In this document: in pieces, positions 31,820 to 49,737 of the stretch | Layout: every line of letters begins with the position of its first letter | Numbering within the stretch: the first letter of the stretch is position 1 | Assembly (NCBI GenBank): GCA_002450075.1 | Contig: DJYJ01000015.1 | Location: 2,377 to 66,376 of the forward strand | Length of the DNA stretch: 64,000 nucleotides | Direction of reading: 5' to 3' | DNA from: Clostridiales bacterium UBA6981 | GTDB taxonomy: Bacteria; Bacillota; Clostridia; Oscillospirales; Oscillospiraceae | Made by a program: the position numbers and the translations under genes | Notes under the pieces: generated by a model | Told to the model about the DNA's origin: nothing | Seen by the model: only the letters and a program-made list of their open reading frames with translations | The model's database searches: none

Positions 31820-31942
31820 GTTTTCTTGTTTGAGGTTCAAGTTAATCTGGCGCTGTACAAGAGCGCTGAGCGATAAGGTACAACAGGTTGTTCAAATTGG
31901 AACAGGAAAGAGCTTTACTGTCGCTCTCATTTTGGGGGAGCA

Positions 31943-34216: not shown

Positions 34217-34368
34217 AATGTAACCTCCTTCGCCTATCAATAATAACCCACTTGTATAGTACAGTTGAAAGGATACCAAAGCAATAGGTGGACAACTTTT
34301 TTTCATTGCAAAAATGTTGTCCGCTATGCTATAGTGTCCTTGAGCCGGAAGAGAAGGAGTGAACCGCC

Positions 34369-36183
34369 ATGCTTTCAGAGAGGATAAGCGCCATATTCAC
34401 ACTTCTGCACTGCAACAACACGGAGATTGCCCGTTACGCCGGCTGCTCGTCGGGCAATATCTCCAAACTGAAAACCGGAAGGCGCTCACCGAAGTCCAGC
34501 AGCCCTTCCATTGCCTCGCTGGCGAGCGGTATCTACGGCTATGCCGACTACGAAAACATGCTGCCTGCACTGCAGGAGCTCTGTGGCAGCACGGATACTG
34601 CGCGGGAGACCCTGCTTCCTGCTTTGGTCGCATGGCTCTATGAGACAGACGAGATCGTCCTGCCAGCTCTCACAGACGTGCCGAAAAGCAAGCGGGCGCG
34701 AAAACAGCGGCGGAAGGCCTTTGGAGAGCGACTGGATCGCGCTGCCGCCCTGTTGGATCTTTCCAACGCAAAACTTGCCTCGCAGCTTAGTATCGACGTC
34801 TCTCTTGTCAGCCGTTTCCGCAGCGGTATTTATTCGCCTCACGGGAATGACCGGCTGGCGGAGAAGCTGTCCGATCTGCTGTTCTCCCGTGCGCAGCAGG
34901 TAGGAAAAACAGAGGAGTTTGGCGCACTTTGCGGCGTTGGCGCAGCGCAGCTAAATTCCGATTCCGTGGCAGCGTGGCTCTATGAGATGCCCTCCGAAGA
35001 GGACAACGCGGTTATGGCTGGGCTGCTGCTGCGGTCTCTGGACGAGTTCAAGCCGGGCGGAGGCCTGCCTTCTGCCAGCCCGGATGCGGCGGAGAACCCG
35101 GTTGAAGCCTGCTATTTTGGAACGGAAGGGCTGCGGAGCGCTGTGATCCGCTTTTTGTCCGACGCTGCGCGGGAGGGCGGCGAGCTGCTCCTTTACTCCG
35201 ACGAGCCCATGGACTGGATGACGGGAGATCGGGCTTATTTTGCCCGGTGGACTTCCCTGATGAGCCAGTGTGTGAGCCGCGGCGTGACGATCAAGATCAT
35301 CCACAACGTAGACCGCATTGGGGAAGAGATGGTCAACGCGATCCGCGGCTGGCTGCCCCTGTATGTTTCCAGCAGGATCGAGCCCTTTGTCTTCCGCAAA
35401 CAGCAAAACGCACGGTTTTATCACACGGTATTCCTCCGATCCGGCAGCGCCTGTATCCACGGCTTCTTCCCCACGGAAGGCAGGGAGAGCCGATGGTATG
35501 AATATATCACGGACGCAAAGCGCCTCGGCCTGATCGAACGGGAGTATACCGCCATGCTGTCCGCCGCATCGCCGTTTCTCAAGGTCTACCGGGAAGCGTC
35601 ACGGGAGGAATACCTGTCGTTCCGCTCTGCCGGGCAAGGGGCGAGAGCGTTTCTGCTGTCCGACCTTCCTGTGTTTACTATGCCGGAGAAGCTGTTGGAG
35701 CGGATCCTAAGCCGCGCGGAGCTTGAGCCGGCGCGCAGGAGCTTCGTGCTTTCTCTCTACCGCCGGGAGCGAGAGCTGTTTCAGGCTTTGCTTCAGCAGG
35801 ATGCGGTAAACATGATCCTCTGCTTGCCGGAGGACACCTTGGGACAGCCGCGGTTCGTCAATTTCGGATTTGATCTGCTGGATCTCGTGATGGAATTTAC
35901 GCAGGAGGAATATGCCGAGCACCTGGCGGCCATCACCGAGCTTGTCAGAAACGAGAAGAATTTTCATTTGACGCTGCTGGCTGAGTCACCGTTCCGGGAG
36001 ATTCAGATCGCTATGCCGGGGGATGCTGTGGCCGTTCTGCGCAGCAAAAGGCCCTATGGCGCGTTTGTCTTTTCCAATCCCTCTCTGAGCCAGTCTGTAT
36101 CGGGGTACCTTTCCCTGCTGACAGAAAACCATGCCGCAGACAGAAGCTCGACAATTGCGGCATTGGAAAAGCTGATCCGGTGA
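34369..36183 (+). CDS. large (604 aa) protein with two N-terminal XRE-like HTH segments, otherwise unknown
   Basis: AAGGAG RBS. NNTEIARYAGCSSGNISKLKTGRRSP and SNAKLASQLSIDVSLVSRFRSGIYSP resemble XRE-type HTH helix2-turn-helix3. Confidence 0.55.
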   Translation: MLSERISAIFTLLHCNNTEIARYAGCSSGNISKLKTGRRSPKSSSPSIASLASGIYGYADYENMLPALQELCGSTDTARETLLPALVAWLYETDEIVLPALTDVPKSKRARKQRRKAFGERLDRAAALLDLSNAKLASQLSIDVSLVSRFRSGIYSPHGNDRLAEKLSDLLFSRAQQVGKTEEFGALCGVGAAQLNSDSVAAWLYEMPSEEDNAVMAGLLLRSLDEFKPGGGLPSASPDAAENPVEACYFGTEGLRSAVIRFLSDAAREGGELLLYSDEPMDWMTGDRAYFARWTSLMSQCVSRGVTIKIIHNVDRIGEEMVNAIRGWLPLYVSSRIEPFVFRKQQNARFYHTVFLRSGSACIHGFFPTEGRESRWYEYITDAKRLGLIEREYTAMLSAASPFLKVYREASREEYLSFRSAGQGARAFLLSDLPVFTMPEKLLERILSRAELEPARRSFVLSLYRRERELFQALLQQDAVNMILCLPEDTLGQPRFVNFGFDLLDLVMEFTQEEYAEHLAAITELVRNEKNFHLTLLAESPFREIQIAMPGDAVAVLRSKRPYGAFVFSNPSLSQSVSGYLSLLTENHAADRSSTIAALEKLIR

Positions 36184-36291
36184 ACACTTTGTATCTGTGA
36201 ACTGTTTTTCTCCTTGCAAAAACAAGGAGCCTGCTGTACGAAAAGCGCGTCCTTTTACACTGACGCATCCTTCTTGCTCGGAGGCGAGGAC

Positions 36292-36741
36292 ATGGCAAGC
36301 ATAGTTAATACAAACACCCTGATGAAACGCCTGTTCAAGGCAGCAGATCTTGACACCTACCTGGAAGGAAACGAAAGCGATCTTCACTCCCCGGACTTTT
36401 ATTCGCTTCTGAAGCAGGCCTGCGAAAAGCGGAATATGCTCCCGGCGCAGGTGATCGAACGCTCCCAGATCGAGCGGACCTATGGCCACCAGCTGTTTAA
36501 CGGAACGCGCCGGCCCTCACGCGATAAGGTGCTCCAGCTTGCGCTCGGCCTCGGCTTGAGCGTGGACGAGACCCAGCGTCTGCTGCGTGCGGCGGGAAAA
36601 AGCCCGCTCTATCCCCGGCTGAAGCGGGACGCCGTGATCCTGTACGGGATCGGGAAAAAGCTCCCCATCCTTACCGTTCAGGAGAACCTGACGAAATACG
36701 GGCTGACCCTGCTGGGAGGGCTGAAAAATGGAATCGACTGA
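36292..36741 (+). CDS. small XRE-like HTH protein coupled to the kinase gene
   Basis: GGAGGCGAGGAC precedes ATG 36292. PAQVIERSQIERTYGHQLFNGTRRPSRDKVLQLALGL HTH-like block. The 3' end overlaps the kinase start by 14 nt. Confidence 0.55.
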   Translation: MASIVNTNTLMKRLFKAADLDTYLEGNESDLHSPDFYSLLKQACEKRNMLPAQVIERSQIERTYGHQLFNGTRRPSRDKVLQLALGLGLSVDETQRLLRAAGKSPLYPRLKRDAVILYGIGKKLPILTVQENLTKYGLTLLGGLKNGID

Positions 36742-38446
36742 AACCTGCGCCATGATCCCGAATCTCCCGGACGAGTCAGAATACCCCGGGGAACTGACGC
36801 GGCGCTATGAGCTTTTGGAGTGCTTCTCCGACAAAGAGGACATGCGGACCCTTCTGGCCGCCGACCGCGAGAGCGGCGAGCTCTGTGTGGTCAAGTGTTA
36901 TCTCCGGGAAAGCCCTCTGTTTGACCGCAGCGAGCCGGAAGCCCTGCGGACGATCGACGCTGCGCCGATGCCGCGTTTTCTGGAGGAATACCGCAATGAG
37001 CAGATGCGCTGCGTACTGCGGGAATATGTGCCCGGTGAGACGCTGTCGCAGCTGGCCAAAGAACAGACTTTCACAGAGGAAGAGATCATCCGCATCGGCC
37101 TGCAGCTATGCGATCAGCTCCACGCGCTGCACGGCATGACGCCGCCGGTGATCCATCGGGACATCAAGCCCCAGAATGTTGTCCTGCGCCCGGACGGGGC
37201 GGCCGTGCTGATCGACTTCGGCATCTCGCGGGTCCGCACGGAAAAGGATGCCGACACCGTCGCATTCGGTACCCAGGGCTTCTCCCCGCCGGAGCAGTAT
37301 GGGTTTTCCCAGACGGACGCCCGTTCGGATATCTACTCTCTCGGCATCCTGCTGTACTGGCTGCTGCACCGTGCGACGAAGGTCACGCAAAACAGCCGCT
37401 CCGCCTTGGAAAAGGTCATCGCCCGCTGTGTGTTCTTTGATCCCGACAAACGTTTTGACAACGTAGAGCAAGTCAGGCGCGCACTGCTTGCCGCGAAGCC
37501 GGAGGCACGGAAGAAGCGCAAACGCCTGATTACTGTTGCCGTATGCCTTTTGCTGGCGCTGCTCTCCTGCGGGGTCTTCTTTTCTGCCCGGGCCAATCAG
37601 CGGGCAGTCTTGTTTTCCCAGCCGCTGATCGAGCAGGCGGTGAGGGCAAATCTGGGGCTTTCGGACACGGCACCGATCACAAAGGATATGCTTGAGCAGG
37701 TCACAGCTCTTTACATCGTGGCGGATGCTGCCTACCCGGATGCAGACAGCTTCTACCCCGCCATCAATCGGTGGTATGCGGAGGGGAAGCCGACACGCGG
37801 GGCGATCACAGATCTAAATGACCTCGCGGCAATGCCCAATTTGGAGCGGGTTTGTATCGTCGCGCAGGAGCTGACAGATATCTCAGCCCTGGCAGAGCTT
37901 CCCAAGCTCGACAAAGTGGAGCTCAAGCACAACTATCTCACGGATATTTCTGTTCTGGCCGGGATGGATCACCTGACCTACGTGGGGATCAACGACAATC
38001 CGGTGCGGGATATTTCCCCGCTGGCCGCCTGCCCGAATCTGGCTTTTATGGATCTGTGCGACGTGCGCAGCTACGAGCCATCCGTGATCGCGCAGCTGGG
38101 CAACTTCAACTCTCTGGACATCTCGAACCCCACCGGAAGCTATCGGTATCTGGACGGAAAAAGCATCCTCGATCTGCGCCTCGCTTGGAGCGGTCTGGAC
38201 GATCTGCATTGCCTGGATCATGTGACACGGCTGGAACGGCTGGAGATCGACCATACCGCCGTCTCGGATCTCTCCCCGTTGGCTCTGCACAAAGGGCTGA
38301 AGGTGCTGAAGCTGGCAGGGCTCCCGGTCACCGATCTCAGCGTTTTGCTGGAGCTGCCCCAGCTTGAGGAGGTTTATATCAGCGAGGAACTGCGCCCCGC
38401 CGCCGAGGCTCTCGGCCCGGTTCCTTTTAGCTTCGTGTATGAATAA
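36728..38446 (+). CDS. Hanks-type Ser/Thr protein kinase - TM - extracytoplasmic leucine-rich-repeat domain
   Basis: GGGAGGG RBS. Catalytic-loop HRDIKPQNVVL, DFGISR, GTQGFSPPE. TM LITVAVCLLLALLSCGVFFSA. The C-terminal half is about 22-aa LRRs (LTDISALAELPKLDKVELKHNYLTDISVLAGMDHLTYVGINDNPVRDISPLA...). Confidence 0.8.
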   Translation: MESTETCAMIPNLPDESEYPGELTRRYELLECFSDKEDMRTLLAADRESGELCVVKCYLRESPLFDRSEPEALRTIDAAPMPRFLEEYRNEQMRCVLREYVPGETLSQLAKEQTFTEEEIIRIGLQLCDQLHALHGMTPPVIHRDIKPQNVVLRPDGAAVLIDFGISRVRTEKDADTVAFGTQGFSPPEQYGFSQTDARSDIYSLGILLYWLLHRATKVTQNSRSALEKVIARCVFFDPDKRFDNVEQVRRALLAAKPEARKKRKRLITVAVCLLLALLSCGVFFSARANQRAVLFSQPLIEQAVRANLGLSDTAPITKDMLEQVTALYIVADAAYPDADSFYPAINRWYAEGKPTRGAITDLNDLAAMPNLERVCIVAQELTDISALAELPKLDKVELKHNYLTDISVLAGMDHLTYVGINDNPVRDISPLAACPNLAFMDLCDVRSYEPSVIAQLGNFNSLDISNPTGSYRYLDGKSILDLRLAWSGLDDLHCLDHVTRLERLEIDHTAVSDLSPLALHKGLKVLKLAGLPVTDLSVLLELPQLEEVYISEELRPAAEALGPVPFSFVYE

Positions 38447-38471
38447 GTGAATACCGCGAAAAAGTTCCGAG

Positions 38472-38519
38472 AAAAGCGCCAATGTGTGCAGCCTGCACAC
38501 CAATTGGCGCTTTTCTTTT
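38472..38519 (+). terminator. intrinsic terminator after the kinase gene
   Basis: AAAAGCGCCAAT ... ATTGGCGCTTTT stem with an inner GTGCAG/CTGCAC helix, followed by TCTTTTG. Confidence 0.75.
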
Positions 38520-38584
38520 GCTATACTTTTTACTGGTTTATTGTAAGCAGATTTGCTTCCGAAAGAAACAGGAGGGACGGTACC

Positions 38585-40603
38585 ATGGCCTATACCGCAA
38601 TCGAAAATATGAGAAAACGGAATGAAGCGCGCTTTGGCTCGGATGTGGGGCCGCAGCAACCGCCTCTCTATCAGAACCGTTTCTGTCAGCAGGATCTGAA
38701 GTCCGCGGCGCTGCGCTTTCTCCATGAACGCTGTGAGCAACTGCTGTTTGACCCTGCGAGAGAGACGGAGGAGCGGCAGACCGGCGTTTTCCTCGGCAAG
38801 AGCCTTTCTGCAAACCAGATCCCCTTTAACATGGAAATGGACGTCAACCGGCTTTGTCTCGAAAAAGCGCTGGAGGCCTTTATCGACTCCGGCGTGGCCG
38901 AGGACGCCTATACGGTCTATTACTGCTATCTGGACATGTTCCTGGGGCGCTACGGAAACTCCAAGCGCATGGTGGAGCTGCTGAGCGAATACGAGGCAAA
39001 CGGCAGCTCGCTGCTGATGAAGCACCGGGATCACTATTCCCATTCGGTCTATGTGTTTGCCCTCGGCCTGGCCATCTACGAAACCAATGAAGCGTACCGG
39101 AACAGCTTTTGGCGCTTCTATCGGTTGGAGGAGCGGAAAGAGAACGAAAGAGCCAATCTGTTTTTGGAGTATTGGGGACTGACGGCGCTCTTTCACGACA
39201 TCGGCTATCCCTTTGAGCTGCCTTTCGAGCAGGTGCTCAGCTACTTTGAAGTGGATCATCAGGAGCGCGGCAAGGGCAGTTTATACCTGGCCTATCATGA
39301 TGTGGAGGCGCTGACCGCCCTGGACGAGGCGGCGAAGGTTCATTTCGAAACGCTTTACGGAAAACGCTTCGAGACGACCAGCGCGCTGCTGGCGCATGAT
39401 CTTGCGCAAAAGCTCGGCGCAGCCTATGACTTCTCCGAGGACTACCTGCTGGCCGTGCTGGACCGGAAGCCGACGCAGCCCAACCGCTTCGGCTACTTCA
39501 TGGATCACGCCTTTTTCAGCGCCTCCCGCCTGTACCGGGAGCTGGCGGAGGAGCTCGGCGCGGAGAATCTCTCTCCCATGCATGTGGACGCGCTGTCGGC
39601 CATTATGCTGCATAACAGCCTCTATAAGTTCTCCATCGCTTTTTATAAGGACAATGAAAAACGGAAAGCGCCGCTGAAGGCGGAGCTTCACCCCCTGGCC
39701 TGGCTGCTGATGCTCTGTGACGAGCTGCAGTGCTGGGACCGCACCGCCTACGGGCGCAATTCCCGCACGGAGCTGCACCCCATGGCCGTCGATTTTGATT
39801 TCTCCGACAGCGCGATCCGCGCCGTCTATTACTACGACCGGGAAGAACAGGAAAAAATCGACGCCTTCAAGCTGAAATACGCCGCCTGGGAAGCGGGCGG
39901 CGAGCAGGGCAAGCCTCCGCGTCTGAAAGCCTACAGCGACATGGCGGAGAAGGAGCAGCGCTTTACGGCGGATATTGAAAAGATCGTGGACACCGAGACC
40001 TGTCCTCTGCATATCCGTCCGGACGTCCGGCAGGTGGATCGCCGGAGCAAGCACACCTATCTGTCCGGCAGCAACTTCCTGCACTTATACGATTTTGCCG
40101 TGGCGCTCCACGGACGGAACATGCCGCAGGAGACCACTGCGGAGGAATTGGAAGAAAAATTCACCTCGCAGTCGCTGGAATACCAGCTCTCCGGCATCAA
40201 CCGTGCAAAAAGCTTCAGCCGCTATCTCAATGCCCTGGGCTGCTTCTATACGGACAGACCGGTGGATTATGAGATGGTGACGGCCTTTACGCCCGAGCAG
40301 GCGCTGCAGATCGCGCCCCTGGAGCATGAGCGCTGGGTGCGGGAGCATCAAGGCATGGGCTGGCGTTGTGGCACAGCCTATGAGACCCTGCCGCTCCCGG
40401 AGGATAACCGGAATGCGCGGAGAGCGCTGCGGGAGCAGCTGCGCTGCCACAAGCTGGCCATGGACGGAGATGTGACGGACGAAGAGGTCCGCGCGCATTT
40501 CTTCTCCCTGCCGGAGGAAGATCAGGACAAGGACTGGAAGCCCTTCAACAGCATGCTCAAGCTGCTGAAAAAGTTTGACGGGCTGCGCATCTATAAGCTG
40601 TAA
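38585..40603 (+). CDS. HD-domain phosphohydrolase with C-terminal RyR-like domain
   Basis: AGGAGGGA RBS before ATG 38585 (the listed 38447 start would read through the terminator). H..HD..H..D set: HYSHSVYVF, LFHDIGYPFE, IMLHNSLY, LMLCDELQCWD. The C-terminus LEHERWVREHQGMGWRCG...LPEEDQDKDWKPFNSMLKLLKKFDGLRIYK follows the RyR-domain pattern (E.W......GW.yG...LpeeeK..D......L...G..I.K). Confidence 0.6.
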   Translation: MAYTAIENMRKRNEARFGSDVGPQQPPLYQNRFCQQDLKSAALRFLHERCEQLLFDPARETEERQTGVFLGKSLSANQIPFNMEMDVNRLCLEKALEAFIDSGVAEDAYTVYYCYLDMFLGRYGNSKRMVELLSEYEANGSSLLMKHRDHYSHSVYVFALGLAIYETNEAYRNSFWRFYRLEERKENERANLFLEYWGLTALFHDIGYPFELPFEQVLSYFEVDHQERGKGSLYLAYHDVEALTALDEAAKVHFETLYGKRFETTSALLAHDLAQKLGAAYDFSEDYLLAVLDRKPTQPNRFGYFMDHAFFSASRLYRELAEELGAENLSPMHVDALSAIMLHNSLYKFSIAFYKDNEKRKAPLKAELHPLAWLLMLCDELQCWDRTAYGRNSRTELHPMAVDFDFSDSAIRAVYYYDREEQEKIDAFKLKYAAWEAGGEQGKPPRLKAYSDMAEKEQRFTADIEKIVDTETCPLHIRPDVRQVDRRSKHTYLSGSNFLHLYDFAVALHGRNMPQETTAEELEEKFTSQSLEYQLSGINRAKSFSRYLNALGCFYTDRPVDYEMVTAFTPEQALQIAPLEHERWVREHQGMGWRCGTAYETLPLPEDNRNARRALREQLRCHKLAMDGDVTDEEVRAHFFSLPEEDQDKDWKPFNSMLKLLKKFDGLRIYKL

Positions 40604-40622
40604 GCAAAGGCGGGAAAACACA

Positions 40623-41180
40623 ATGGCAAACCTTGCATCTGTCAGCGTTCTCTTTGAAAACGAAGAGCAAGCAAAGCGTGCTCTAACCGTCACGGAGGGC
40701 ATGATCAAGCTGCTCTATGCCCCGCCGACGCTGCCCTGGGCGGCAGAAGCGCAGCAAATCCCCTCGCTGAGCAAGCGCTATTTCCGCTTCTGTGAGGAAG
40801 CCGCAAAGCTTGACGTGCTCGCCGAGCGCCCGCACTGTGCGCTCAAATGGCTGCGGCGGGAGGGCGCGCAGCTCGCTCTTACGCGCTGCGCCGATATCCA
40901 GTCGCCTGTGAATGAACGCTCGCCGGCTGACTTTTTCAGTCAGCTGTGCCTTGTTCTGTCCAAGTGCTTTCCGGACGGTGCTTTTACGGCTTTCTGCCGC
41001 CATGAGGAGACGGTAAGCGCCACGGTGCAGCTGATCCGCATCATGCATCGGGATAACAAACTGATTTTCACCGAGATGTACCGGCTGGACGGAGATGAGC
41101 GGGACGAAGATGACTGGTCCTGCGCCGCCACGTTTTTGTTGCGGGACAGCGACGGCGTTTTCGTCTGGTCGAAGAGGTAA
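40623..41180 (+). CDS. hypothetical protein (185 aa), no recognisable domain
   Basis: ATG 19 nt after the HD-RyR stop and 6 nt before the next gene. The call rests on tight operon packing and reasonable composition only. Confidence 0.5.
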   Translation: MANLASVSVLFENEEQAKRALTVTEGMIKLLYAPPTLPWAAEAQQIPSLSKRYFRFCEEAAKLDVLAERPHCALKWLRREGAQLALTRCADIQSPVNERSPADFFSQLCLVLSKCFPDGAFTAFCRHEETVSATVQLIRIMHRDNKLIFTEMYRLDGDERDEDDWSCAATFLLRDSDGVFVWSKR

Positions 41181-41186
41181 ATAAGT

Positions 41187-42017
41187 ATGACCCCGAAATG
41201 GATGAAACAGATCCCGCCCTATGAGGGCGATCAGCCCTATTTGTACCTGGCCTTTGCCGAGGAGGACAGCGGGCGTGTCTGGAAGCTCCTGCGGCCGCTG
41301 CTGGCGCGGGGCTGCCGGGTGTGGTACTGCGTTGGCCCGGCGGGCAGCGCGGAGGAGCTGCTGTACCGACAGGAGCGCTGTGAAAAGGCGGGGCTGACCG
41401 TGGTCTATCTGACGGACGCACTCTGCGCGGACCGGGACAGCAAAAGCGCCGTTCTTGTCAATCAAAAATATAACCGTCCGATCCTCTGCCTGGATCCGGA
41501 CGAAAAGGACCGCCGCCTCGACATGAATCTGCGGGAGACGATCCCGCATGTTCCCTTATATCGGCTGTCAAGCGAGGAATGGGAGGGCGCCGTTTTACAC
41601 GCCGAGGGCTTTTCCCAGGACATGCTCGGTGAGCCGATCCCGATCGGAGACGACAGCAAAACCATCAAAAAGCTCACGCTGACCTTCTGTGCGTTGGCCC
41701 TGCTGCTGGCCGTGGTGTCCTTTGCGGGCTTTCGGGTGTTCGGCTGGTTCTCCCCCGCGGCGCGGGATGAGCTGGAAATCCGCGACCCGGCGATCCGCTC
41801 CGCGGTGCGTCAGGCTGTGGGCGGCGGCGCGATCACGGAGGAGCGGGCAAATGAGGTCAGCTTCCTGCGCTTCCGGGAACTGCCGGAGAGCTGGGAGGAA
41901 CTTGAGCTGCTGCCGCACTTACAGCGCATCGAGCTGCCGCAGCTCTCCCTGTTGGACGGCGGCGCGCTGCCGGAAGGAGACTGGGTCATCGAATTGAGCG
42001 GAGGTGACGGCTCATGA
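41187..42017 (+). CDS. degenerate TIR-like domain - TM - short LRR protein
   Basis: GAAGAGG RBS. PYEGDQPYLYLAFAEED...LLARGCRVWY parallels the PYEGSRPFVFISYAHRQ...WRLWYDEG block of the next gene. TM LTLTFCALALLLAVVSFAGF. LRR-like tail. Confidence 0.6.
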   Translation: MTPKWMKQIPPYEGDQPYLYLAFAEEDSGRVWKLLRPLLARGCRVWYCVGPAGSAEELLYRQERCEKAGLTVVYLTDALCADRDSKSAVLVNQKYNRPILCLDPDEKDRRLDMNLRETIPHVPLYRLSSEEWEGAVLHAEGFSQDMLGEPIPIGDDSKTIKKLTLTFCALALLLAVVSFAGFRVFGWFSPAARDELEIRDPAIRSAVRQAVGGGAITEERANEVSFLRFRELPESWEELELLPHLQRIELPQLSLLDGGALPEGDWVIELSGGDGS

Positions 42018-43180
42018 GCGGCTTCTTCAAGCCCTACGAGGGCAGCCGCCCCTTTGTCTTTATCAGCTATGCGCACCGCCAGTCCGATACCGTCCTCGAC
42101 ACCATCCGCATCCTGCACGAAAAGGACTGGCGGCTCTGGTACGACGAGGGGATCCCTGCAGGCAGCGACTGGCCGGCCAACATTGCCCGGCATATGCAAA
42201 GCTGTGAGCGGGTGATCTTCTTCCTCTCCGCGCGGGCTTTGGCATCCCACAACTGTTACAGCGAAATGAAGGCCGCGGCGCGGCAGGGAAAACCGATCCT
42301 GCTTGTCCGGCTGGAGGACATATCACCGGACGAAAAGTGGTCGGAGCTTCTGGCCGAATGTCCGGAGATTCCCTTGCTTGAGGAACCGGCGGAGCGTGCG
42401 GGCGCGATCCTGCGCTCCGGCTTTCTGCCCCGCCGCCTGCACCGGCGCTTTACGGAGCGCATCCCCTGGCGGGCGCTGGGACTGATCGCCTCGCTGCTCT
42501 TTTTCCTGGCGGCGGCGGGCGTGCTCGGCGCGCTGACCACGGGAATATGGAACCCGGTCATGGCAGCAGAAATCCCAACAGAGACGCCCGCTTCCCATGA
42601 GGCGCCGACACCGGTGCCCATTGTGGAGCTGGGAGAGGCGGAGCGCTTCTTCGCCGTCAGCTTCCCCGATAAGCAGCAGGAGCGTGCCATCCGCCGGGCG
42701 CTGGATATTCCCGCGGACGCGATCTACCGCTGGCAGATCGCCGGGATCCCGGAGCTGTATTTCTGCGGGAATCTGACGGTGGACGGCAAGGCCGCCGTCT
42801 CCTTCGACGCGGACGGGACCTGCCGCGTCAACGGAGCCCCGGTGATCCAGGGGAATGTGTCCGATCTGCGTCTGATCGAATCCATGGTAAAGCTGGAAAA
42901 ACTCGCCCTGATCTTCCAGCCGATGGACGACCTGTCCGGATTGAGCGGGCACCTGCTGTTGCGGGAGCTGAGCCTCGCGGGCAGCAGCGTGGACGATCTC
43001 TCCGCGCTGACAGAACTGCCAAGCCTGGAGACGCTGCATCTGGAGCACACCGGCGTGCGCGACCTGAGGCCGCTGGAAGAGCTGCCGAGCCTGAAAACCG
43101 TGACGGTCAGCCGGGAAATGCTGCCGCTGACATGGACCGAGCAGGCCGCTTTCGCGGTGGTTTTGATCCGTGAATCCTGA
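42014..43180 (+). CDS. TIR domain - TM - LRR protein (canonical bacterial TIR motifs)
   Basis: GGAGGTGA RBS and ATGA overlap with the upstream stop. FVFISYAHRQSD, WRLWYDEGIPAGSDW, VIFFLSARALASHNCYSEM (conserved Glu E84 at nt 42263-42265). TM LGLIASLLFFLAAAGVLGALTTGIW. C-terminal LRRs. Confidence 0.75.
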   Translation: MSGFFKPYEGSRPFVFISYAHRQSDTVLDTIRILHEKDWRLWYDEGIPAGSDWPANIARHMQSCERVIFFLSARALASHNCYSEMKAAARQGKPILLVRLEDISPDEKWSELLAECPEIPLLEEPAERAGAILRSGFLPRRLHRRFTERIPWRALGLIASLLFFLAAAGVLGALTTGIWNPVMAAEIPTETPASHEAPTPVPIVELGEAERFFAVSFPDKQQERAIRRALDIPADAIYRWQIAGIPELYFCGNLTVDGKAAVSFDADGTCRVNGAPVIQGNVSDLRLIESMVKLEKLALIFQPMDDLSGLSGHLLLRELSLAGSSVDDLSALTELPSLETLHLEHTGVRDLRPLEELPSLKTVTVSREMLPLTWTEQAAFAVVLIRES

Positions 43181-43201
43181 TTCTTTGAAGGAGGATGCGA
43201 T

Positions 43202-46200
43202 ATGAGTAAAAAAGTGATCCATCTGCTGTGCAGCGATGGCGACCGCGCGGCGCTGCAGCCGGTGCTGGACGCTTTGCAGGCCAAGGGACTGCGGGTGTCC
43301 GGGGAAGTACCGGAGAAAAACGACCTTGTGCTGGCGGTGCTGTCCGAGGCTTTCTATGCAGACAACGACAAGACCGATGCGCTGCTTGACCTGCTCGCCG
43401 CGGGGGCGGAAAACGTGCTGCCGCTGCAGCTCGACGGCGTACCGATCCCGGACGCGATCAAAAATGCGCTCTACGCCCGCAACATCATCCCCGCCGCAGG
43501 GCGGGACGCGGCACATACCGCCGAGCGCATCGCTGACGCGCTGCCGAAGCGGAAGTCGAAGCTGCCGCTGATCCTCGGCGCTGCCGGGCTCGTGCTGCTG
43601 GCCGCTGTCGGCCTGTTGATCTGGCGCGGCGCGCAGAAAGGGGAGGCCGTACCTGTCATGGCGGAGACGGCCAACGAGATTTATATCCCCATGGGTCTCA
43701 CGGAAGAAGACCTGGCCGCCATCGAGGACGTGGTCATCGTGGGCGACTATTTCGGCTATTACACCGACGCAGATTTCCGCGAGGCCGGAGAACACTGGCT
43801 CAACGTCTATGACGACGTGGCCTATCGCACCTTTGATGACGACGTTCCCCGGTGGATCAGCAAGGAGGACGGGCACGCCTATACCATGACCCGCTACGAC
43901 GATCTGCGCTTTCTGGAGCTGATGCCGAAGCTGCGGTTTCTGGAACTGGTGAATGTGGAGGCGGGTGCTGACTCGCTTCCGGATTTGAGCGAAGCCGCTA
44001 TTCTGGAGGGCGTGTCCCTCTCTGATTGCGAAATTGACAGTCTGGACTGGCTGGCCGGGGCGCATATGCACGACTTCGACATGCACTCCACGCAGGTGAC
44101 AGACTTTGCGCCGCTCAGCTCCTGCGAGAGACTGAGGACTGTATTTCTCGATTTCTATCAGATTGAAGAGGCCGACCTCTCGACATTCGCCCCGCCCGCG
44201 CTGGAACATCTGGAGATCTGCAACGGGCAGGATCTGCGCGGCGGGCTTGACCTTTCCGCCCTCTCTGCCTGTACAAAGCTGCGCGAATGCCGGCTGGATG
44301 CTGATCTCCCGCTCGCCGATCTGTCCTTCCTCGCCGACGCGTCAAAGCTGGAAGCTCTATACATTTACAATCTGCATGAGCTGCGGGATATCTCTGCGCT
44401 GAACGGGATGAAAAATCTCAAGAATCTGGACATCCAGTACTGCGAGCGCGTCACGGACTATACGCCCATCGCGGGGTGTTCTTCACTGGAACAGATCCAT
44501 CTCCAGTGTGACTACAACCCCGACGCCCTGCGGGACGCCTCCTTCCTCGCCGATCTTCCCAGACTGTGGGATATCGGGCTTTACGGCTGCAATCTGAACG
44601 ATCTGAACTTCCTGGAGGGCAAGCCGGATAACGGCAGCTTGTGTCTGGGCTTTGCCGGGGATATCCGGGACTATTCGGGGCTTGCCACTGTCAAGCACTA
44701 TGACTGGCTGCATCTGAATCCGCGCCGGGTAGACGGCAGCCGCTTCGGCGATCTCTCGGCCGTGCTGCCCTATCTGGAGGGCGCTGAGGTGAAGAACCTG
44801 CACCTGCACGACTGCGGCGGGATCGACCTGGGCCTGCTGCCCAAGGTCACAGAGAGCCTGGAGATCTGGTACGGCGATCTGACCGACTTGAGCACCCTGC
44901 CGGATTGGGGCATCAAGAAACTGATGCTGTATGACTGCCAGTACCTCACGAGCCTGGACGGCATACAGAGCCTGCCCGCTTATACACAGCCCGGCTCTTT
45001 GACCCTTGCGGTCGCGGGCTGCCCGCGTCTGCGGGACTGGAGCGCCATCGAAAACGCCAGTCTGTCGGGTCTGGAGCTGCAGGGCGTCTACTCGCTGCCG
45101 GTATTCGACGGCATCGGCTTCGGCTCCCTGCGGCTGGAGAGCATCGAGGATCTGAGCGATCTGAGCATTCTCTCCGCTCTGTCGGACGGTCACAGCTATA
45201 ACAGCATAGCGCTGGTGGGTCTGGACGCCATCAGTGACCTCACCCCGCTGCGCCGCCTGCAGATCAAGCATCTGCAGATCCCGCCCCAGGTGGCGGATCA
45301 GGCGGAGGAGCTGGTGGAAGCCGGGATCGTGGGCGACTATGAGGTGGCCTACCCCGACGGGGACTGGCAGCCCTTTGACGGTCGGGTAGAGCTTTTGAGC
45401 CTGGACGAGCTGGACACCCTTCCTTCCTCCCTGCTGCAGCGGGTGGAGTGCCTGTGTATTGCAGGCGATACGCTGTTCGATTTCGACCGCTATGACATCT
45501 GGGAAGACTGGGAGCACAGGGATCGGAACGGGAATCCGGCGCTGCAGCTCCACGACCGCGAGACGGACGCGGTGACGCCTCTCTCCCCGGGTGTGATCAC
45601 GGATCTGAGCAGCCTCAGCGCCCTCACCGGCCTGCGGGAACTGTATCTTGTCGGCCAGCCTATCCAAAGTCTGGACGGTATTCAGGTGTTCTCCTTCCTG
45701 GAGGAATTTTCCGCCAAGGGGTGTGCAGAGCTGACTGACGCCTCCGCTCTCTTCGCCCTGCCGGAGCTGCGCTGGGTGGAACTCAAGTGCACGCCGGTGG
45801 ATTCCATCCAGGGCGTACAGAATCTGCCGGAGCTGCGGTATCTGAACGTCTCCAACACAAAGGTGGAGGATCTGACGCCTCTGGCGGAGTGCGACTTCTC
45901 CGCTGCGGAGGAAGACATCGGCTTTGACCTGGACTGCAACGAGCTGAAACTGGGCGAGGAGGATTTCGCCGCCATTGCCCATATCCGGCGCTTTGGGGGT
46001 CTGGCCTTCACCGACGCCGATCCCGCCGTTTGGATCGATGCGCTGTCGGACAGCGAGATACATTATTTCGGCGCCGCAGGAGACCTGCAAAGCAATGAGG
46101 ACCTGGCTGCCTTCGTCTCGGATCATCCGGAGCTGCGGCAGCTGTTCCTGGGCTGGGCGGAGGATATTACCGATCTGACGCCGCTGCTGGCGCTGGAAAA

Positions 46201-46291
46201 CCTGGAAAGAGTCGAAATCAACGGGGACATGCGGGAGGCCATCGCCAGCCTCGACGGGCAGAGCTGTGACTGGCTGGAGATCCAAAACTGA
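43202..46291 (+). CDS. degenerate TIR-like domain - TM - very large (about 850 aa) LRR ectodomain protein
   Basis: GAAGGAGG RBS. The N-terminus VIHLLCSDGD...LQAKGLRV...LVLAVLSEAFYADNDKTD...VLPLQLDG keeps the beta-alpha periodicity of the TIR/flavodoxin-like fold. TM LPLILGAAGLVLLAAVGLLIW. Dozens of 22-25-aa L..L..L.L....I.D.S.L repeats follow. Confidence 0.65.
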   Translation: MSKKVIHLLCSDGDRAALQPVLDALQAKGLRVSGEVPEKNDLVLAVLSEAFYADNDKTDALLDLLAAGAENVLPLQLDGVPIPDAIKNALYARNIIPAAGRDAAHTAERIADALPKRKSKLPLILGAAGLVLLAAVGLLIWRGAQKGEAVPVMAETANEIYIPMGLTEEDLAAIEDVVIVGDYFGYYTDADFREAGEHWLNVYDDVAYRTFDDDVPRWISKEDGHAYTMTRYDDLRFLELMPKLRFLELVNVEAGADSLPDLSEAAILEGVSLSDCEIDSLDWLAGAHMHDFDMHSTQVTDFAPLSSCERLRTVFLDFYQIEEADLSTFAPPALEHLEICNGQDLRGGLDLSALSACTKLRECRLDADLPLADLSFLADASKLEALYIYNLHELRDISALNGMKNLKNLDIQYCERVTDYTPIAGCSSLEQIHLQCDYNPDALRDASFLADLPRLWDIGLYGCNLNDLNFLEGKPDNGSLCLGFAGDIRDYSGLATVKHYDWLHLNPRRVDGSRFGDLSAVLPYLEGAEVKNLHLHDCGGIDLGLLPKVTESLEIWYGDLTDLSTLPDWGIKKLMLYDCQYLTSLDGIQSLPAYTQPGSLTLAVAGCPRLRDWSAIENASLSGLELQGVYSLPVFDGIGFGSLRLESIEDLSDLSILSALSDGHSYNSIALVGLDAISDLTPLRRLQIKHLQIPPQVADQAEELVEAGIVGDYEVAYPDGDWQPFDGRVELLSLDELDTLPSSLLQRVECLCIAGDTLFDFDRYDIWEDWEHRDRNGNPALQLHDRETDAVTPLSPGVITDLSSLSALTGLRELYLVGQPIQSLDGIQVFSFLEEFSAKGCAELTDASALFALPELRWVELKCTPVDSIQGVQNLPELRYLNVSNTKVEDLTPLAECDFSAAEEDIGFDLDCNELKLGEEDFAAIAHIRRFGGLAFTDADPAVWIDALSDSEIHYFGAAGDLQSNEDLAAFVSDHPELRQLFLGWAEDITDLTPLLALENLERVEINGDMREAIASLDGQSCDWLEIQN

Positions 46292-47892
46292 TGAACACAG
46301 AGAAGACGATCCCGATCATCATCGGGGTCACCGGACACCGGGCGATCCGGGAGAAAGACCGTCCGGCGCTTACGGCGGCGGTAAAGGCGGAGCTGGAAAA
46401 GCTTCGCGGGCTTTGTTCTCACTCGCCGCTCGTGATGCTGAGCTCTCTCGCGGAGGGCGCCGATCTCCTGTGCGCCGACGCGGCGGAGGAGTTGGGTATT
46501 CCCCTGATCGCGGTACTTCCCCGGGAGCGGACGGATTACGAGCAGGATTTCAGCCCGGAGGCGCTCGAGCGCTTTGCCCACCACTGTGAGCGCGCCGGGC
46601 AGGTGTTCGTCTCGCCGAGCACAGAACCCCTTCCCCCAGATGGCGTCAGCCGGGCGTATGCGTTTCGGCAGGCCGGGATCTATGTGGCGTCCCACTGCCA
46701 TGTGCTGCTGGCCCTCTGGGACGGAGAGCCGGGGAAGCACGGCTGCGGCACGGCGGAGACGGTGGACTTTGCCCTGAACGGTAGTTATGATCCCGCGTCC
46801 GGCCTGTCCCCGCGCTTGGGCAGCAACGAGGCCGTGATCCACCTTTACACGCCGCGGGTGGAAAGCACGGAAAAGACGGCCGGTGCAGTGGCCGTTCTGG
46901 GAAATCAGGATGCCGTTTGGGACATACTCCGCAAAACGGACGACTTCAATCAAAACGCCTCGAAGGTTTCATCAACGGGGAACTCCCGGCTCCCTGCCGG
47001 GCATGACGGCGACCCCGCCCTGAAGAAGATGGAGACGATCAGTCGCATCGCGGGAAAACTCAGCCGACAATATGCCGGGCGTTATCGGCGCGTGCTTGCC
47101 TTGCTCGCTGTGGCCAGCGCCCTGGTTACCTTTGCGTTTTTACTGTACGACGAGGCGCAGGCGATTTGGATGATTCTTGTCTGCGGAGCGATGCTGCTTG
47201 CCGCCTGGGGCTGTCAGCGCTATGCCGTTCGTTCGGACTGTCACCGCCGCTATATCGAATACCGCGCGCTGGCCGAAGGCTTACGGGTGCAGACCTATCT
47301 GGGCTATGCGGGCAGCGGCATCCAGGCCTCCGGGCTGCTGTCCTGGACGCAGCAGGAGGAGACTGCGTGGATCCTGGACGCTCTCTGTGCGCTGACGATC
47401 GGAAACACACCGAGAGAGGCGCACGATATTCGTTCCTGCTGGGTGGATGCCCAGCGGGAGTACCACCAAAAAGCGGCAAAGAGCGCGGAAGAAAAGCTCT
47501 CTGCCAGTGACCGCACCGTGCGTTTTGCGTTGCTTCTGAGCGTTGGGTTATATCTGCTGGGCGTGGGCTATGAGCTCCTTTGCGGCGGACTGGTGTTCCG
47601 GCCCACTGTCGCGGTAGGGGATGTGGAGCTTTGGCGCACGGTCTTGAAGATCCTGGTGGGGACGATCTCCGCCGTGACGCTCTTTGTGGCCAATTTCTAC
47701 GGACGCCTGTCCCTGCCGCGCACGCTTTCCGACCACCGGAAGATGGAGCGCTTTTACGAAAAAATGTCCTCGGAGATCGAAAAGTGCGGACAGACGGATA
47801 CCGTTCTGACCGTGCTGGCCCGGGAGGAGCTGACCGAAAACGGCAACTGGTGCTCCTATCAGCGGGACAACAAGCCGGATCTTTCACTTTGA
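46291..47892 (+). CDS. SLOG-like Rossmannoid domain fused to two transmembrane hairpins (SLATT-like), candidate membrane effector
   Basis: The start overlaps the upstream stop (TGATG). N-terminal IIIGVTGHR...LVMLSSLAEGADLLCADAAEELGIPLIAVLP...HVLLALWDGEPGKHGCGTAETV matches the strand-helix pattern of LOG/DprA/YpsA-type SLOG domains. There are four hydrophobic helices in two pairs (VLALLAVASALVTFAFLLY / IWMILVCGAMLLAAWG and FALLLSVGLYLLGVGYELLCGG / ILVGTISAVTLFVANFYG). Confidence 0.6.
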   Translation: MNTEKTIPIIIGVTGHRAIREKDRPALTAAVKAELEKLRGLCSHSPLVMLSSLAEGADLLCADAAEELGIPLIAVLPRERTDYEQDFSPEALERFAHHCERAGQVFVSPSTEPLPPDGVSRAYAFRQAGIYVASHCHVLLALWDGEPGKHGCGTAETVDFALNGSYDPASGLSPRLGSNEAVIHLYTPRVESTEKTAGAVAVLGNQDAVWDILRKTDDFNQNASKVSSTGNSRLPAGHDGDPALKKMETISRIAGKLSRQYAGRYRRVLALLAVASALVTFAFLLYDEAQAIWMILVCGAMLLAAWGCQRYAVRSDCHRRYIEYRALAEGLRVQTYLGYAGSGIQASGLLSWTQQEETAWILDALCALTIGNTPREAHDIRSCWVDAQREYHQKAAKSAEEKLSASDRTVRFALLLSVGLYLLGVGYELLCGGLVFRPTVAVGDVELWRTVLKILVGTISAVTLFVANFYGRLSLPRTLSDHRKMERFYEKMSSEIEKCGQTDTVLTVLAREELTENGNWCSYQRDNKPDLSL

Positions 47893-48142
47893 AGAGAGCA
47901 GACCGAACCGCGCAGGTATTTGTCATTCGCAACATTTGGGATCACGATCTCATCATCGTCGCAAAGACTATACGACAGCGAGTTTCTCTTTCCTGAAATA
48001 TCTCTCGGAAAGAGAGTACGACCATGCTTCGGCAGGATATTTGGAAGATAATCATCACGACGATTTTTCGCTTCCAAGAGGTCACCGGTGAACTCAGCCC
48101 GCGGGACAATATCATAATATTTCTTGTATTTACAAAATGTAT

Positions 48143-48170
48143 GAGGGCAGGAGCCGCAACTCCTGCCCTC
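48143..48170 (-). terminator. hairpin terminator downstream of guaA
   Basis: GAGGGCAGGAG / CTCCTGCCCTC 11-bp stem with a 6-nt loop. On the minus strand it is followed by ATACATTTTGTAAAT. Confidence 0.6.
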
Positions 48171-48198
48171 ACTGTTTCCTTCATCATCATGTGTCTGG

Positions 48199-49734
48199 TC
48201 ATTCGTATTCCACCGTGGCCGGCGGCTTCGAGGTGATGTCATAGAGCACACGGTTGACGCCCTTTACCTCGTTGACGATCCGCACGGACACTCGGTCGAG
48301 CAGTTCCCAGGGCAGGCGCGTAAAGTCGGCGGTCATAAAATCCGAGGTCTGCACGCTGCGCAATGCCACGGCATGATCGTAACTGCGCCCGTCGCCCATA
48401 ACGCCGACGGAACGCAGATTCGTCAGTACCGCGAAATACTGGTCGGCTGTCTGATCCAGTCCGGCCTTTGCCATCTCCTCCCGGAAGATAGCGTCGGCCT
48501 CGCGCAGCAGAGCGAGCTTTTCCGCCGTCACCTCACCGATCACGCGGATGGCAAGGCCTGGCCCGGGGAAGGGCTGGCGCGAGACCAGGCTCTCCGGGAG
48601 CCCCAGCTCCCGCCCCAGCTGGCGCACCTCGTCCTTGAAGAGCAGACGCAGCGGCTCGAGGATCTCCTTGAAATCCACATAGTCCGGAAGCCCGCCCACA
48701 TTGTGGTGGCTCTTGATGACGGCGGATTCGCCGAGGCCGGATTCGATCACGTCGGGGTAGATCGTCCCCTGGGCCAGATAGTCCACCGCGCCGATCGATT
48801 TTGCTTCCGCCTCGAAGACGCGGATGAATTCCTCCCCGATGATGTGGCGCTTTTCTTCCGGCTCCCGCACGCCGCGCAGGCGCGCCAGAAAGCGATCGGA
48901 AGCATCGACGCGGCGGAAGTTCAAAGCGTGCGGGGCAAAAACGGTCTCCACCTCGTCGCCTTCGTTTTTGCGGAGCAGGCCGTGGTCGACAAAGACGCAG
49001 GTAAGCTGGCTGCCGATGGCCTCACTCAGAAGCGCGGCCAGCACCGAGGAATCCACGCCGCCGGAGAGCGCCAGCAGCACGCGGCCCTTGCCGACGCGTC
49101 TGCGAAGCTCGTCTACGCTGCGGCGCTTGAAATCCGCCATGGTCCAGTCGCCGTGCGTCCCGCAGACGCGGTACAGGAAATTGCGCAGCATCTCCCGCCC
49201 GAAGGCCGTGTGATCGACCTCCGGATGAAACTGCACGCCATAGAAACCCCGCTCCTCATCACAGATCGCGGCGGTGGGACAGGCCGCGGAATGTGCGGCA
49301 AGACGGAAGCCCTCCGGTACCCTGGTCATGTAGTCCCCGTGGCTCATCCAGGTAACGCTCTGCTCGGGCAGATCCCGGAACAGCGCGCAGGTCGGATCGA
49401 AAAATGTTTCGGTCTTGCCGTACTCACGGGCGGAAGCATCCTCCGCTGCGGTGACCAGCCCGCCGAGAGACTGCGCCAGCAGCTGGCAGCCGTAGCAGAT
49501 GCCGAGGATCGGCACGCCAAGTTCAAAAACGCCGGGGTCTGGCCTGGGCGAATCGGCGAGATACACGCTGTGCGGCCCGCCGGTGAAGATGATACCGACG
49601 GGAGAAAAGCGGCGGATCTCGTCCAGGGACATGTTGTGCGGGTGCAGCTCGCAGTACACATGCTGCTCGCGCACGCGCCGGGCGATCAGCTGGTTATACT
49701 GGCCGCCGAAATCAAGGATCAGGATTTTCTCCAT
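48199..49734 (-). CDS. guaA: GMP synthase (glutamine-hydrolysing)
   Basis: [29 protein letters not shown] (GATase Cys), [11 protein letters not shown] (PP-loop SGGxDS), C-terminal KPPATVEYE. Confidence 0.95.
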
Positions 49735-49737
49735 GCA

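Follow-up and report, generated by a model that had tools for sequence, protein, structure and literature searches.

Organization of the Locus

The window analyzed here, a stretch of 64,000 nucleotides (nt) from contig DJYJ01000015.1 of Clostridiales bacterium UBA6981, carried nine genes on the same strand (+) between positions 34369 and 47892, numbered G1 to G9. The last six genes, G4-G9, encode three membrane proteins with a TIR or TIR-like domain, a candidate effector in which a SLOG domain is followed by four transmembrane (TM) segments, a protein with HD and RyR-like domains, and a small soluble protein. We propose that these genes constitute a Thoeris-like TIR nucleotide-signalling module in which membrane receptors would act as the sensors.

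The nine genes, reported earlier in a first-pass annotation of the sequence, were reproduced by mechanical open reading frame (ORF) calling. G1 (34369-36183, 604 residues), G2 (36292-36741, 149 residues) and G3 (36728-38446, a Hanks kinase followed by a TM segment and leucine-rich repeats, LRRs) were separated by a gap of 138 nt from G4 (38585-40603), which encodes a cytoplasmic protein of 672 residues with an HD and an RyR/R12-like domain. G5 (40623-41180) encodes the soluble protein of 185 residues. The genes for the three membrane proteins came next: G6 (41187-42017, 276 residues, with a degenerate TIR domain), G7 (42014-43180, 388 residues, with a TIR domain that has the catalytic Glu) and G8 (43202-46291, 1029 residues, with a weakly TIR-like N-terminus). 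The last gene, G9 (46291-47892), encodes the SLOG-4TM effector candidate of 533 residues. GGAGG-like sites were present upstream of most of the starts, and the previously listed spacings from G4 to G9, of 19, 6, -4 (ATGA), 21 and -1 (TGATG) nt, were identical when read from the sequence.

The gap between G3 and G4 contained, at positions 38469-38517 (+), an intrinsic-terminator-like hairpin composed of an A-tract, a stem of approximately 22 bp and a U-tract. The minimum free energy of the segment 38447-38540 was -38.5 kcal/mol (z = -6.7 versus 200 shuffles). The hairpin was unlisted by a consensus terminator scan. It could correspond to a terminator, or to an attenuator controlling the read-through into the TIR operon. 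A bidirectional terminator-like hairpin (14 bp, 8 GC) was located at 48141-48172, between G9 and the convergent guaA gene. Because of these two hairpins and of the tight spacing, G4-G9 (38585-47892) most likely represent one operon, G1-G3 being set apart as an upstream unit. G4-G9 are also the unit that is conserved.

The Membrane Proteins G6, G7, and G8

G6, G7 and G8 had been described as three paralogous TIR(-like)-TM-LRR proteins. For G7, the description stood entirely. Its TIR domain (42026-42418, TIR_2 E-value 5.2e-17) contained the catalytic Glu84 (42263-42265) within an NCxSE motif, and this motif was invariant in 14 orthologues. The TM segment was located at 42473-42529 and an extracytoplasmic LRR region at 42839-43126 (LRR_4 2.2e-8). 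Weak ThsB matches were also obtained with this protein, the predicted signal-producing enzyme of the module. G6 stood as a TIR homologue, without the catalytic residue. It gave no Pfam match, and its N-terminus (TIR at 41211-41603) was homologous to the TIR domain of G7 (BLASTP 1e-9; hhalign probability 98%, E 2.8e-14). The catalytic Glu was replaced by Ala88 in an alignment ungapped across the position, and the codon was verified. A TM segment (41673-41729) and a short LRR-like ectodomain followed.

The TIR status of G8 was found to be weak. Its first 120 residues approximately (43202-43561) were Rossmann-like and weakly TIR-like, without catalytic Glu. The hhalign comparison of this region gave E 3e-4 with a probability of 39% against G6, and E 0.037 against G7; a search of its profile against the PDB returned only designed Rossmann folds. 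Beyond the TM segment (43568-43624), G8 possessed a large hypervariable LRR ectodomain covering 43649-46288 (LRR_4 2.6e-20, with internalin-type matches). One to three copies of G8 were found per locus, and G8 is predicted to be the main sensor.

The proteins G6, G7 and G8, as well as the kinase G3, have a single TM segment each, with Lys/Arg clusters on its N-terminal side. This position of the positive residues indicates that the TIR and kinase domains should be cytoplasmic, and the repeats extracytoplasmic, as the first-pass annotation had proposed for the TIR proteins. A literature search for transmembrane TIR or TIR-LRR receptors of bacteria found no description, which is not proof of their absence.

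The SLOG-4TM Protein G9

The structure suggested earlier for G9, a SLOG-like domain fused to two TM hairpins, was recovered in an AlphaFold2 (AF2) model built with 60 homologues (predicted local distance difference test, pLDDT, 86.8; predicted template modelling score, pTM, 0.86). The SLOG domain occupied the first 235 residues (46291-46995) and was YpsA-like. Foldseek aligned it with YpsA (2nx2, E 6.7e-5, target-normalized template modelling score, TMt, 0.60), with DprA, ShosA and LOG-like proteins and, with a probability of 0.98, with the structure of the ThsA SLOG domain bound to 3'-cyclic ADP-ribose (3'cADPR; 7uxs). Residues G12, T14, G15, H16, R17, G56 and W143-D144-G145 were invariant or nearly so. 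Four TM segments were distributed in two hairpins. The first hairpin, of SLATT/DUF4231 type, covered 47062-47301 with its TM segments at 47092-47214; the second one covered 47524-47697 and was followed by conserved C-terminal helices. Among the 60 homologues, DUF4231 (SLATT clan) was matched by 55 and YAcAr by 46, and there were a few SLATT_1 and SLATT_3 matches. The window protein itself remained below threshold for both families (DUF4231 8e-5, 23.4 bits for a cut-off of 24.7; YAcAr 0.012). An internal duplication of the two hairpins was considered and rejected, as the hhalign comparison was not significant (E 0.05), and the second hairpin is not called SLATT here. No SIR2 or Macro match was found in G9, and the PADLOC models of ThsA gave no match. 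Sequence and profile searches of G9 and G4 against the PDB returned nothing useful.

G9 belongs to a large family, with 5872 matches at E <= 1e-3 and 456 at E <= 1e-30 among 1.84 billion representatives of 50% identity clusters. The full-length architecture was kept down to approximately 29% identity.

The HD-RyR Protein G4

G4 had been called an HD phosphohydrolase with an RyR-like tail, and both domains were supported. The HD domain covered approximately 39002-39754, and the two-repeat RyR/R12-like domain 40067-40600. The metal-binding set of the former (H153, H204-D205, D379) and residues H581, W584, H622 and D650 of the latter were invariant in 60 homologues. In the AF2 model (pLDDT 82.9, pTM 0.88), the C-terminal 180 residues corresponded to the Repeat12 of human RyR3 (9ls7_D, Foldseek probability 0.95, 210 columns), and weak matches to the HD folds of PPX and dGTPase were seen (probability 0.06-0.23). 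The motifs HSxxV, HDIGxPF and D...WD of G4 resemble those of SAMHD1/dGTPase-type HD phosphohydrolases. Sub-threshold HD matches were obtained for 27 of the 60 homologues (best E 1.7e-4), and sub-threshold RyR matches likewise for 27. A divergent orthologue (L021:8284-10014, 26% identity) matched the Pfam RyR family (PF02026) at 1.8e-15, with 57.4 bits for a cut-off of 27.4. Against the PDB, the profile of the G4 RyR tail gave no better than E ~0.5, to RyR3.

Conservation of the Block and Exchange of the Sensors

The surroundings of G9 homologues were compared in 24 species-representative genome loci and 80 metagenome loci (104 in total, G9 identity 49-96%), and in nine loci with distant G9 members (29-41% identity), making 113 related loci altogether, designated by L numbers. 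The relatives of the window were metagenome-assembled genomes of rumen and gut Clostridia labelled Oscillospiraceae or Ruminococcaceae. By tblastn and all-against-all clustering of ORFs, the only recurrent families were G9, G8, G7, G6, G4, G5, G3 and G2. Next to G9, G8 was present in 48 of the 104 loci, and at least 35 had a TIR gene there (G6, G7 or a different one). G4 adjoined G9 in 47 of them, and did so also in Mogibacterium; G4 is a core partner of G9. When only the 28 loci flanked by 4 kb or more on each side were considered, 26 carried a partner and approximately 24-25 a TIR or TIR-like receptor gene, variant receptors being counted. The TIR, SLOG-TM and HD genes thus occur together in many genomes, as the first-pass annotation had anticipated, and their order is permuted: G4-G5-G9-G6-G7-G8 in L009, G2-G3-G6-G7-G8-G4-G9 in L022, and G4-G6-G7-G9 followed by three copies of G8 in L023. 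The flanks were unrelated between loci; only L005 shared the downstream housekeeping genes of the window.

In several loci, other receptors stood in place of G6-G8. L043 possessed a TIR_2-TM-LRR_5 (BspA-LRR) protein beside G4 and G9, whereas a TIR_2-TM-WD40 propeller protein was found in L006, with homologues in L090, L092, L101 and L104. L071 encoded a TIR-like-TM protein and a propeller protein. Three proteins were present in L007 and L008: a TIR-Sel1/TPR protein anchored at its C-terminus, a 2TM-LRR_5 protein and a DUF4062-NACHT protein of the STAND class, which is cytoplasmic. A 1049-residue ORF of L006, considered as a possible partner, was the shadow of the minus-strand TIR-WD40 gene and had no Pfam match; it was discarded.

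The association extended to the distant members, seven out of nine adjoining genes for TIR or TIR-like (including DUF4062) proteins. The neighbours were a DUF4062-NACHT-TPR protein whose gene overlaps the G9 homologue in L105 (Saccharolobus), a G7-like TIR-TM-LRR protein in L106, TIR_2 and DUF4062 proteins and a clear G4 orthologue in L107, a TIR_2-TPR protein in L108, an RyR-domain protein and a G1-like helix-turn-helix (HTH) protein in L110, a TIR-TM-WD40 protein in L111, a TIR-TM-PASTA protein and a small TIR-like-TM-LRR protein in L112, and a TIR_2 protein with many TM segments in L113. L109 showed no TIR or RyR gene. Sensors vary while G4 and G9 stay across loci; the general rule is therefore that SLOG-4TM proteins are associated with TIR proteins, usually membrane-anchored and with outward ligand-binding domains, and often with an HD-RyR protein.

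Some of the distant loci deserve a description of their own. L105 is located at 6603-11683 in Saccharolobus sp. E5-1-F (CP045687.1), where the gene of the STAND protein, with its TIR-like DUF4062, overlaps the start of the G9-family gene. An OLD-like ATPase/DUF4276 pair, noted near this locus only, is situated approximately 6 kb away, and the STAND and G9-family genes together have the look of an archaeal defence candidate of two genes. In L112 (3363-5726), a gene for a TIR_2-TM-PASTA protein stands beside the G9 homologue. As PASTA modules bind peptidoglycan fragments in PknB-type kinases, some of these receptors may read material of the cell wall. L107 belongs to a metagenome-assembled genome of Mogibacterium sp. 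Its G4 orthologue (5728-7851) reached 1063 bits against the G4 profile, whereas the G9 homologue (8001-9629) was only about 36% identical to that of the window; either the rates of evolution of G4 and G9 are very different, or lineages have exchanged G4. In L110 (1087-7336), the genes of the G1-like HTH protein, a 793-residue RyR-domain protein and a 244-residue protein accompany the G9 homologue, with no recognizable TIR. Either a TIR was overlooked, or the RyR and SLOG-4TM proteins use a messenger made elsewhere.

The rates of evolution differed between the parts of the block. The ectodomain of G8 was 57% (L003) and 55% (L004) identical to that of the window, for 86% and 79%, respectively, in its cytoplasmic domain, and in the same comparison G4, G6, G7 and G9 were near 75-90%. 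In L005, the flanking housekeeping genes were 91-95% identical, versus 71-82% for the genes of the block. Identities were also discordant from gene to gene, with 88-89% for G9 and 77% for G4 in L026, and 83% for G9 and 90% for G4 in L002, which suggests an exchange of parts between loci. Judging from identity percentages, the fast G8 ectodomain and this discordance resemble what is usually seen in receptor repertoires exposed to diversifying pressure.

At least 598 metagenome matches to G9 were obtained. The family is thus abundant in rumen and gut Clostridia, yet it is annotated only as hypothetical where it is named: all source-named members (five in the list of the top 120 and three of ten distant clusters, including an archaeon and a Mogibacterium) bore the label "hypothetical protein".

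Comparison with Known Systems

Thoeris systems are now divided into types I-XI (Yirmiya et al., bioRxiv 10.64898/2025.12.03.692087). In type I, a SLOG domain reads 3'cADPR; type III associates several TIRs with a SLOG effector; in type VII, the ThsB TIR is paired with the SLATT protein ThsH, the signal is canonical cADPR and the effector is thought to breach the membrane (10.64898/2025.12.03.692087). According to later papers, TIR-SLATT neighbourhoods had been predicted earlier by the Aravind group. In agreement with the first-pass annotation, PADLOC recognized no complete known system in the block. Two features of Thoeris in general are found here: a TIR with the catalytic Glu (G7), and an adjacent, co-conserved effector with a ligand-sensing domain (G9). 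As in types I and III, a SLOG domain is expected to read the product of TIRs that occur as several paralogues per locus. G9 differs from the type I effector in having neither SIR2 nor Macro, its output being a membrane module, so that the block does not belong to type I, and its SLOG domain is nearer to the YpsA/YAcAr type than to the ThsA (STALD) type. The block resembles type VII in pairing a predicted TIR enzyme with a membrane effector candidate whose first hairpin is SLATT-like, but G9 has in addition an N-terminal SLOG domain and a second 2TM hairpin, and the TIRs are here membrane receptors. In this comparison, the match of G9 to the SLATT models was at or just below threshold, and ThsH was compared by profile only.

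A close likeness was with the "SLOG and 4TM" class, a predicted class of Thoeris effectors (Tables S1 and S2 of 10.64898/2025.12.03.692087). In these operons, as for G7 and G9, a TIR gene lies beside a gene for an effector with a SLOG domain and four TM segments; G9 was likened to the published effectors by architecture only. The TIR domain of G7 was 23-24% identical to two listed "4TM SLOG" TIRs, with the S..C..E motif in register. The published examples differ from the block in being two-gene operons from Streptomyces and Nitrospira. The core pairing of TIR and SLOG/SLATT is thus already known, and we class the block as a probable variant of Thoeris-like TIR signalling of the "SLOG-4TM" class. 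The earlier statement that the composition was undescribed has to be restricted accordingly: it does not apply to the TIR-SLATT pairing, known from type VII, nor to the "SLOG and 4TM" core, and it stands for three features of which no description was found. These are the membrane TIR receptors with hypervariable ectodomains that are predicted to sense the outside, the HD-RyR partner encoded by the host, and the linked LRR receptor kinase, all of which appear undescribed. In the work of Yirmiya et al., the terms "LRR" and "RyR" were absent from the supplementary files, and "LRR" and "HD domain" from the main text, a linked kinase not having been searched for; "transmembrane" was used in the main text of effectors only (10.64898/2025.12.03.692087).

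The RyR tail of G4 was compared with phage RyDEP proteins, RyR/R12 proteins that hydrolyse or sequester 2'/3'cADPR by means of the key residues H75, W78, H100 and D117 (Lopez Rivera et al., PMC13232231, May 2026), a work covering viral proteins only. Both have an RyR Repeat12-like fold and an H-x-x-W, H, D set (H581, W584, H622 and D650 in G4), the equivalence of the residues being deduced from motif alignment and not from superposition. Unlike RyDEP, G4 is a host protein whose gene lies inside a TIR operon, and its RyR tail is preceded by an HD phosphohydrolase domain and accompanied by a central domain. When the viral models of BFVD were searched with G4 by Foldseek, nothing meaningful was matched, and hence no RyDEP-like protein was recognized in that way.

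Toll-like receptors (TLRs) and plant LRR receptor kinases follow the same logic as G6-G8 and G3, in which an LRR ectodomain is connected through one TM segment to a domain in the cytoplasm, TIR or TIR-like in G6-G8 and kinase in G3. TLRs are organized with the LRRs outside at the N-terminus, the TM segment and the TIR inside at the C-terminus, whereas the order is reversed in G6-G8 (N-in TIR, TM, C-out LRR; type II). In addition, the output is presumed to be a small molecule made by an enzyme, without recruitment of an adaptor. G6-G8 are analogous to TLRs and not members of their family, and common descent is not implied.

A Model for the G4-G9 Module and Its Alternatives

We interpret G4-G9 as a Thoeris-like TIR nucleotide-signalling module with membrane receptors as sensors, with a probability that we estimate at roughly 0.6. 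In the model that we propose, a ligand present outside the cytoplasmic membrane, from a phage or another envelope-associated cue, would bind the LRRs of G8, and also those of G7 and G6. From what is generally known of TIR enzymology, binding would cluster the cytoplasmic TIR and TIR-like domains. G7, which is the sole TIR with the catalytic Glu, would then turn nicotinamide adenine dinucleotide (NAD+) into a cADPR-type or another ADP-ribose (ADPR)-derived messenger, and G6 and G8 would be non-catalytic TIR-like assembly partners, in a manner resembling the receptor-adaptor TIR contacts of animals. The messenger would be read by the SLOG domain of G9, the SLATT-type four-helix part of which may open or oligomerize. 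An ion leak or a depolarization would follow, with growth arrest or death as the consequence.

The RyR/R12 domain of G4 would bind the same class of messenger. Because RyR/R12 domains bind or cleave cADPR isomers, the tail of G4 is probably more than a passive appendage, and the regulatory or signal-degrading role imagined earlier for the HD enzyme can thus be stated more sharply, its function being deduced from the domains and their conserved residues. Two roles may be envisaged. The RyR domain, with its conserved His/Asp glycosidase dyad, could together with the HD domain destroy the messenger, thereby setting a threshold and resetting the system. Alternatively, G4 could be a second effector, an HD hydrolase with SAMHD1/dGTPase-like motifs switched on by the RyR domain. 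We lean slightly towards the clearing enzyme, because a receptor exposed to the outside would need a suppression of noise. The absence of G4 from some distant loci would agree with an accessory role in both cases.

The function attributed to the block (defence, identity of the signal and surface sensing) is what we infer from the sequence, and several observations weigh against it. Relatives of G9 were not found among the IMG/VR viral contigs, and no defence was seen with the two "SLOG and 4TM" operons tested in E. coli (10.64898/2025.12.03.692087). The flanks of the block consist of housekeeping and regulatory genes (guaA, pyrG, asnB, glnA, glmS) and not of a defence island, no systematic test of enrichment having been made, and PADLOC gave no meaningful match near the block in the flanks of the window. 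Some G9 genes were solitary (L024, L064 and L109). At the level of domains, the HD match of the window G4 was sub-threshold (Pfam HD 0.012) and RyR gave no match at E <= 0.1; TIR_2 matched nine of 22 G8 orthologues below threshold, with a best E-value of 0.0038; and the topology of the receptors was deduced from hydropathy and the positive-inside rule, without a dedicated predictor. Finally, the best 120 matches of G4 and G9 were 58-99% identical, a strong conservation that fits a lineage-wide physiological system equally well as immunity.

This last point leads to an alternative in which the same chain of events serves ordinary physiology. The cell could react reversibly to its neighbours, to polymers of the plant or host, or to fragments of cell wall; G9 would be an ion channel under regulation, and G4 would clear the messenger. 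The housekeeping context without defence neighbours would be expected in that case, as would the high conservation of G4 and G9 across many rumen Clostridia; a messenger-degrading enzyme suits reversible signalling, PASTA and internalin-type LRR sensor domains occur in relatives, and G3 and G2 link a Hanks receptor kinase and an HTH regulator with the block. We nevertheless consider it unlikely, although by no means negligible. The sensors are swapped, duplicated (one to three copies of G8) and hypervariable while the readers are constant, and the block is found in differing genomic contexts, where it evolves faster than its housekeeping flanks. Cytoplasmic versions with STAND (NACHT) and TPR proteins exist, one of them archaeal and near an OLD-like ATPase/DUF4276 pair. 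Moreover, every characterized bacterial TIR + SLOG or TIR + SLATT system is anti-phage (10.64898/2025.12.03.692087).

It is also conceivable that the TIRs are scaffolds, or NAD+-depleting effectors triggered by their ectodomains, G9 and G4 being independent and merely co-regulated. The absence of the catalytic Glu from two of the three TIR-like domains and the existence of solitary G9 genes would agree with this explanation, and many bacterial TIRs, according to a published account, deplete NAD+ instead of signalling. It accounts poorly for the conservation of the Glu in all 14 G7 orthologues and for the adjacency of G9 and TIR genes, which was still observed at 29% identity and in archaea, the stop codon of one gene overlapping the start of the next. 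Relatives of both partner domains bind ADPR-derived signals (SLOG in ThsA, RyR in RyDEP), and we judge the explanation improbable. Still further down, and hardly credible to us, comes a chance neighbourhood of internalin-like LRR proteins and unrelated genes, with the SLOG, HD and RyR domains over-read. The window proteins do fall below the curated thresholds (HD 0.012, YAcAr 0.012, DUF4231 23.4 versus 24.7 bits), but a chance association is contradicted by synteny, as dozens of loci whose flanks are unrelated have kept the genes together in permuted orders. In addition, the high-confidence AF2 models match SLOG and RyR structures, one orthologue of G4 is above the Pfam RyR threshold and the motif residues are invariant.

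If the signalling module with membrane receptors is the correct interpretation, it would have consequences for the understanding of TIR signalling. In the Thoeris literature consulted, sensing takes place inside the cell, whereas the variable receptor parts are predicted to face outward here, which would mean that detection occurs at the envelope, according to the logic of TLRs with the opposite polarity. The constant partners, G4 and G9, are two concrete candidates for receptors of the messenger. Through the HD-RyR protein, an RyR domain of cellular origin would belong to a TIR pathway, and the old question of the reading of cADPR by RyR domains could be approached with small bacterial proteins. 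More tentatively, and with somewhat less than even odds in our opinion, TLR-like sensors of this kind may be widespread in bacteria and present in some archaea. Their outer LRR, WD40 or PASTA domains would recognize a threat or cue that is still outside, the TIR would respond with a cADPR-type messenger, and the messenger would act on a SLOG-gated channel and an RyR/HD enzyme. In that case, Thoeris-type signalling would for the first time have a transmembrane (outside-in) input, and G4 would contain the first non-viral RyR domain of a prokaryotic cADPR pathway, a direct model for the long-debated link between cADPR and RyR.

The Upstream Genes, G5, and the Flanking Regions

G1 encodes two weak Xre-type HTH modules (sub-threshold HTH_3 and Xre-like-HTH) and a C-terminal part without domain match. 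The first-pass annotation had counted it in the block. It gave no tblastn match in the 104 related loci and is separated from G4 by the hairpin that sets G1-G3 apart; G1 is a neighbour of the module, outside the conserved block. The G1-like HTH protein of the distant locus L110 was detected by pairwise comparison (E 1e-4).

G2 is an XRE-family HTH_31 regulator (HTH_31 3e-6), and its end overlaps the start of G3 by 14 nt. The architecture announced for G3, a Hanks kinase-TM-LRR protein, was fully recovered. The kinase domain covered 36860-37528 (Pkinase 8.4e-27), with the motifs HRDIKPQN and DFG. It was followed by a single TM segment at 37526-37582 (residues 267-285), with KKRKR just before it, and by an internalin-type LRR ectodomain at 37670-38413 (LRR_4 1.2e-13). 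The LRRs of G3 were paralogous to those of G7 and G8 (BLASTP 1e-8 to 1e-10). G2 and G3 occurred as a pair in L004, L005 and L022, as they do in the window. G3 was present in 13 of the 104 loci, and G2 and G3 were always located at the block. They look like an optional regulatory arm, which would also sense the outside of the cell.

The product of G5 had no Pfam, NCBIfam or PADLOC match. The gene was present in eight of the 104 loci, each time within the block, and it is an optional accessory gene. Its relatives at L007:4661-5206, L008:3671-4216 and L009:295-777 showed 35-85% identity, and G5 was always positioned between G4 and the TIR genes or adjoining G9.

Upstream of G1, a promoter-like site (TTGCAA-18-TATAGT, with a TG extension) was seen at 34306-34335 (+). 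The evidence for it is weak, as the scan of the region gave three sites for 3.5 expected from shuffled sequences, that is, no excess. The gene divergent from G1 (32705-34306, -) encodes a predicted lipoprotein or secreted protein of 533 residues without Pfam match, which was not found in the related loci. An integrative element received no support: tRNA genes were absent from the window, and mobile-element genes from the scanned flanks. The G+C content of the window was approximately 60%, with a dip to 0.49-0.54 at 24000-32000 (~0.60 elsewhere). This segment contained a hybrid histidine kinase/response regulator gene (25961-28531, -), a MarR-like gene and a sodium:solute symporter gene, and no mobile-element gene was seen in it. 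Directly after the block, the region 48199-61625 contained housekeeping genes of nitrogen and nucleotide metabolism: guaA, pyrG, asnB, an amtB-glnB fusion, a type III glutamine synthetase gene and glmS. Part of this housekeeping set was also located beside the block in L005, inverted and rearranged.

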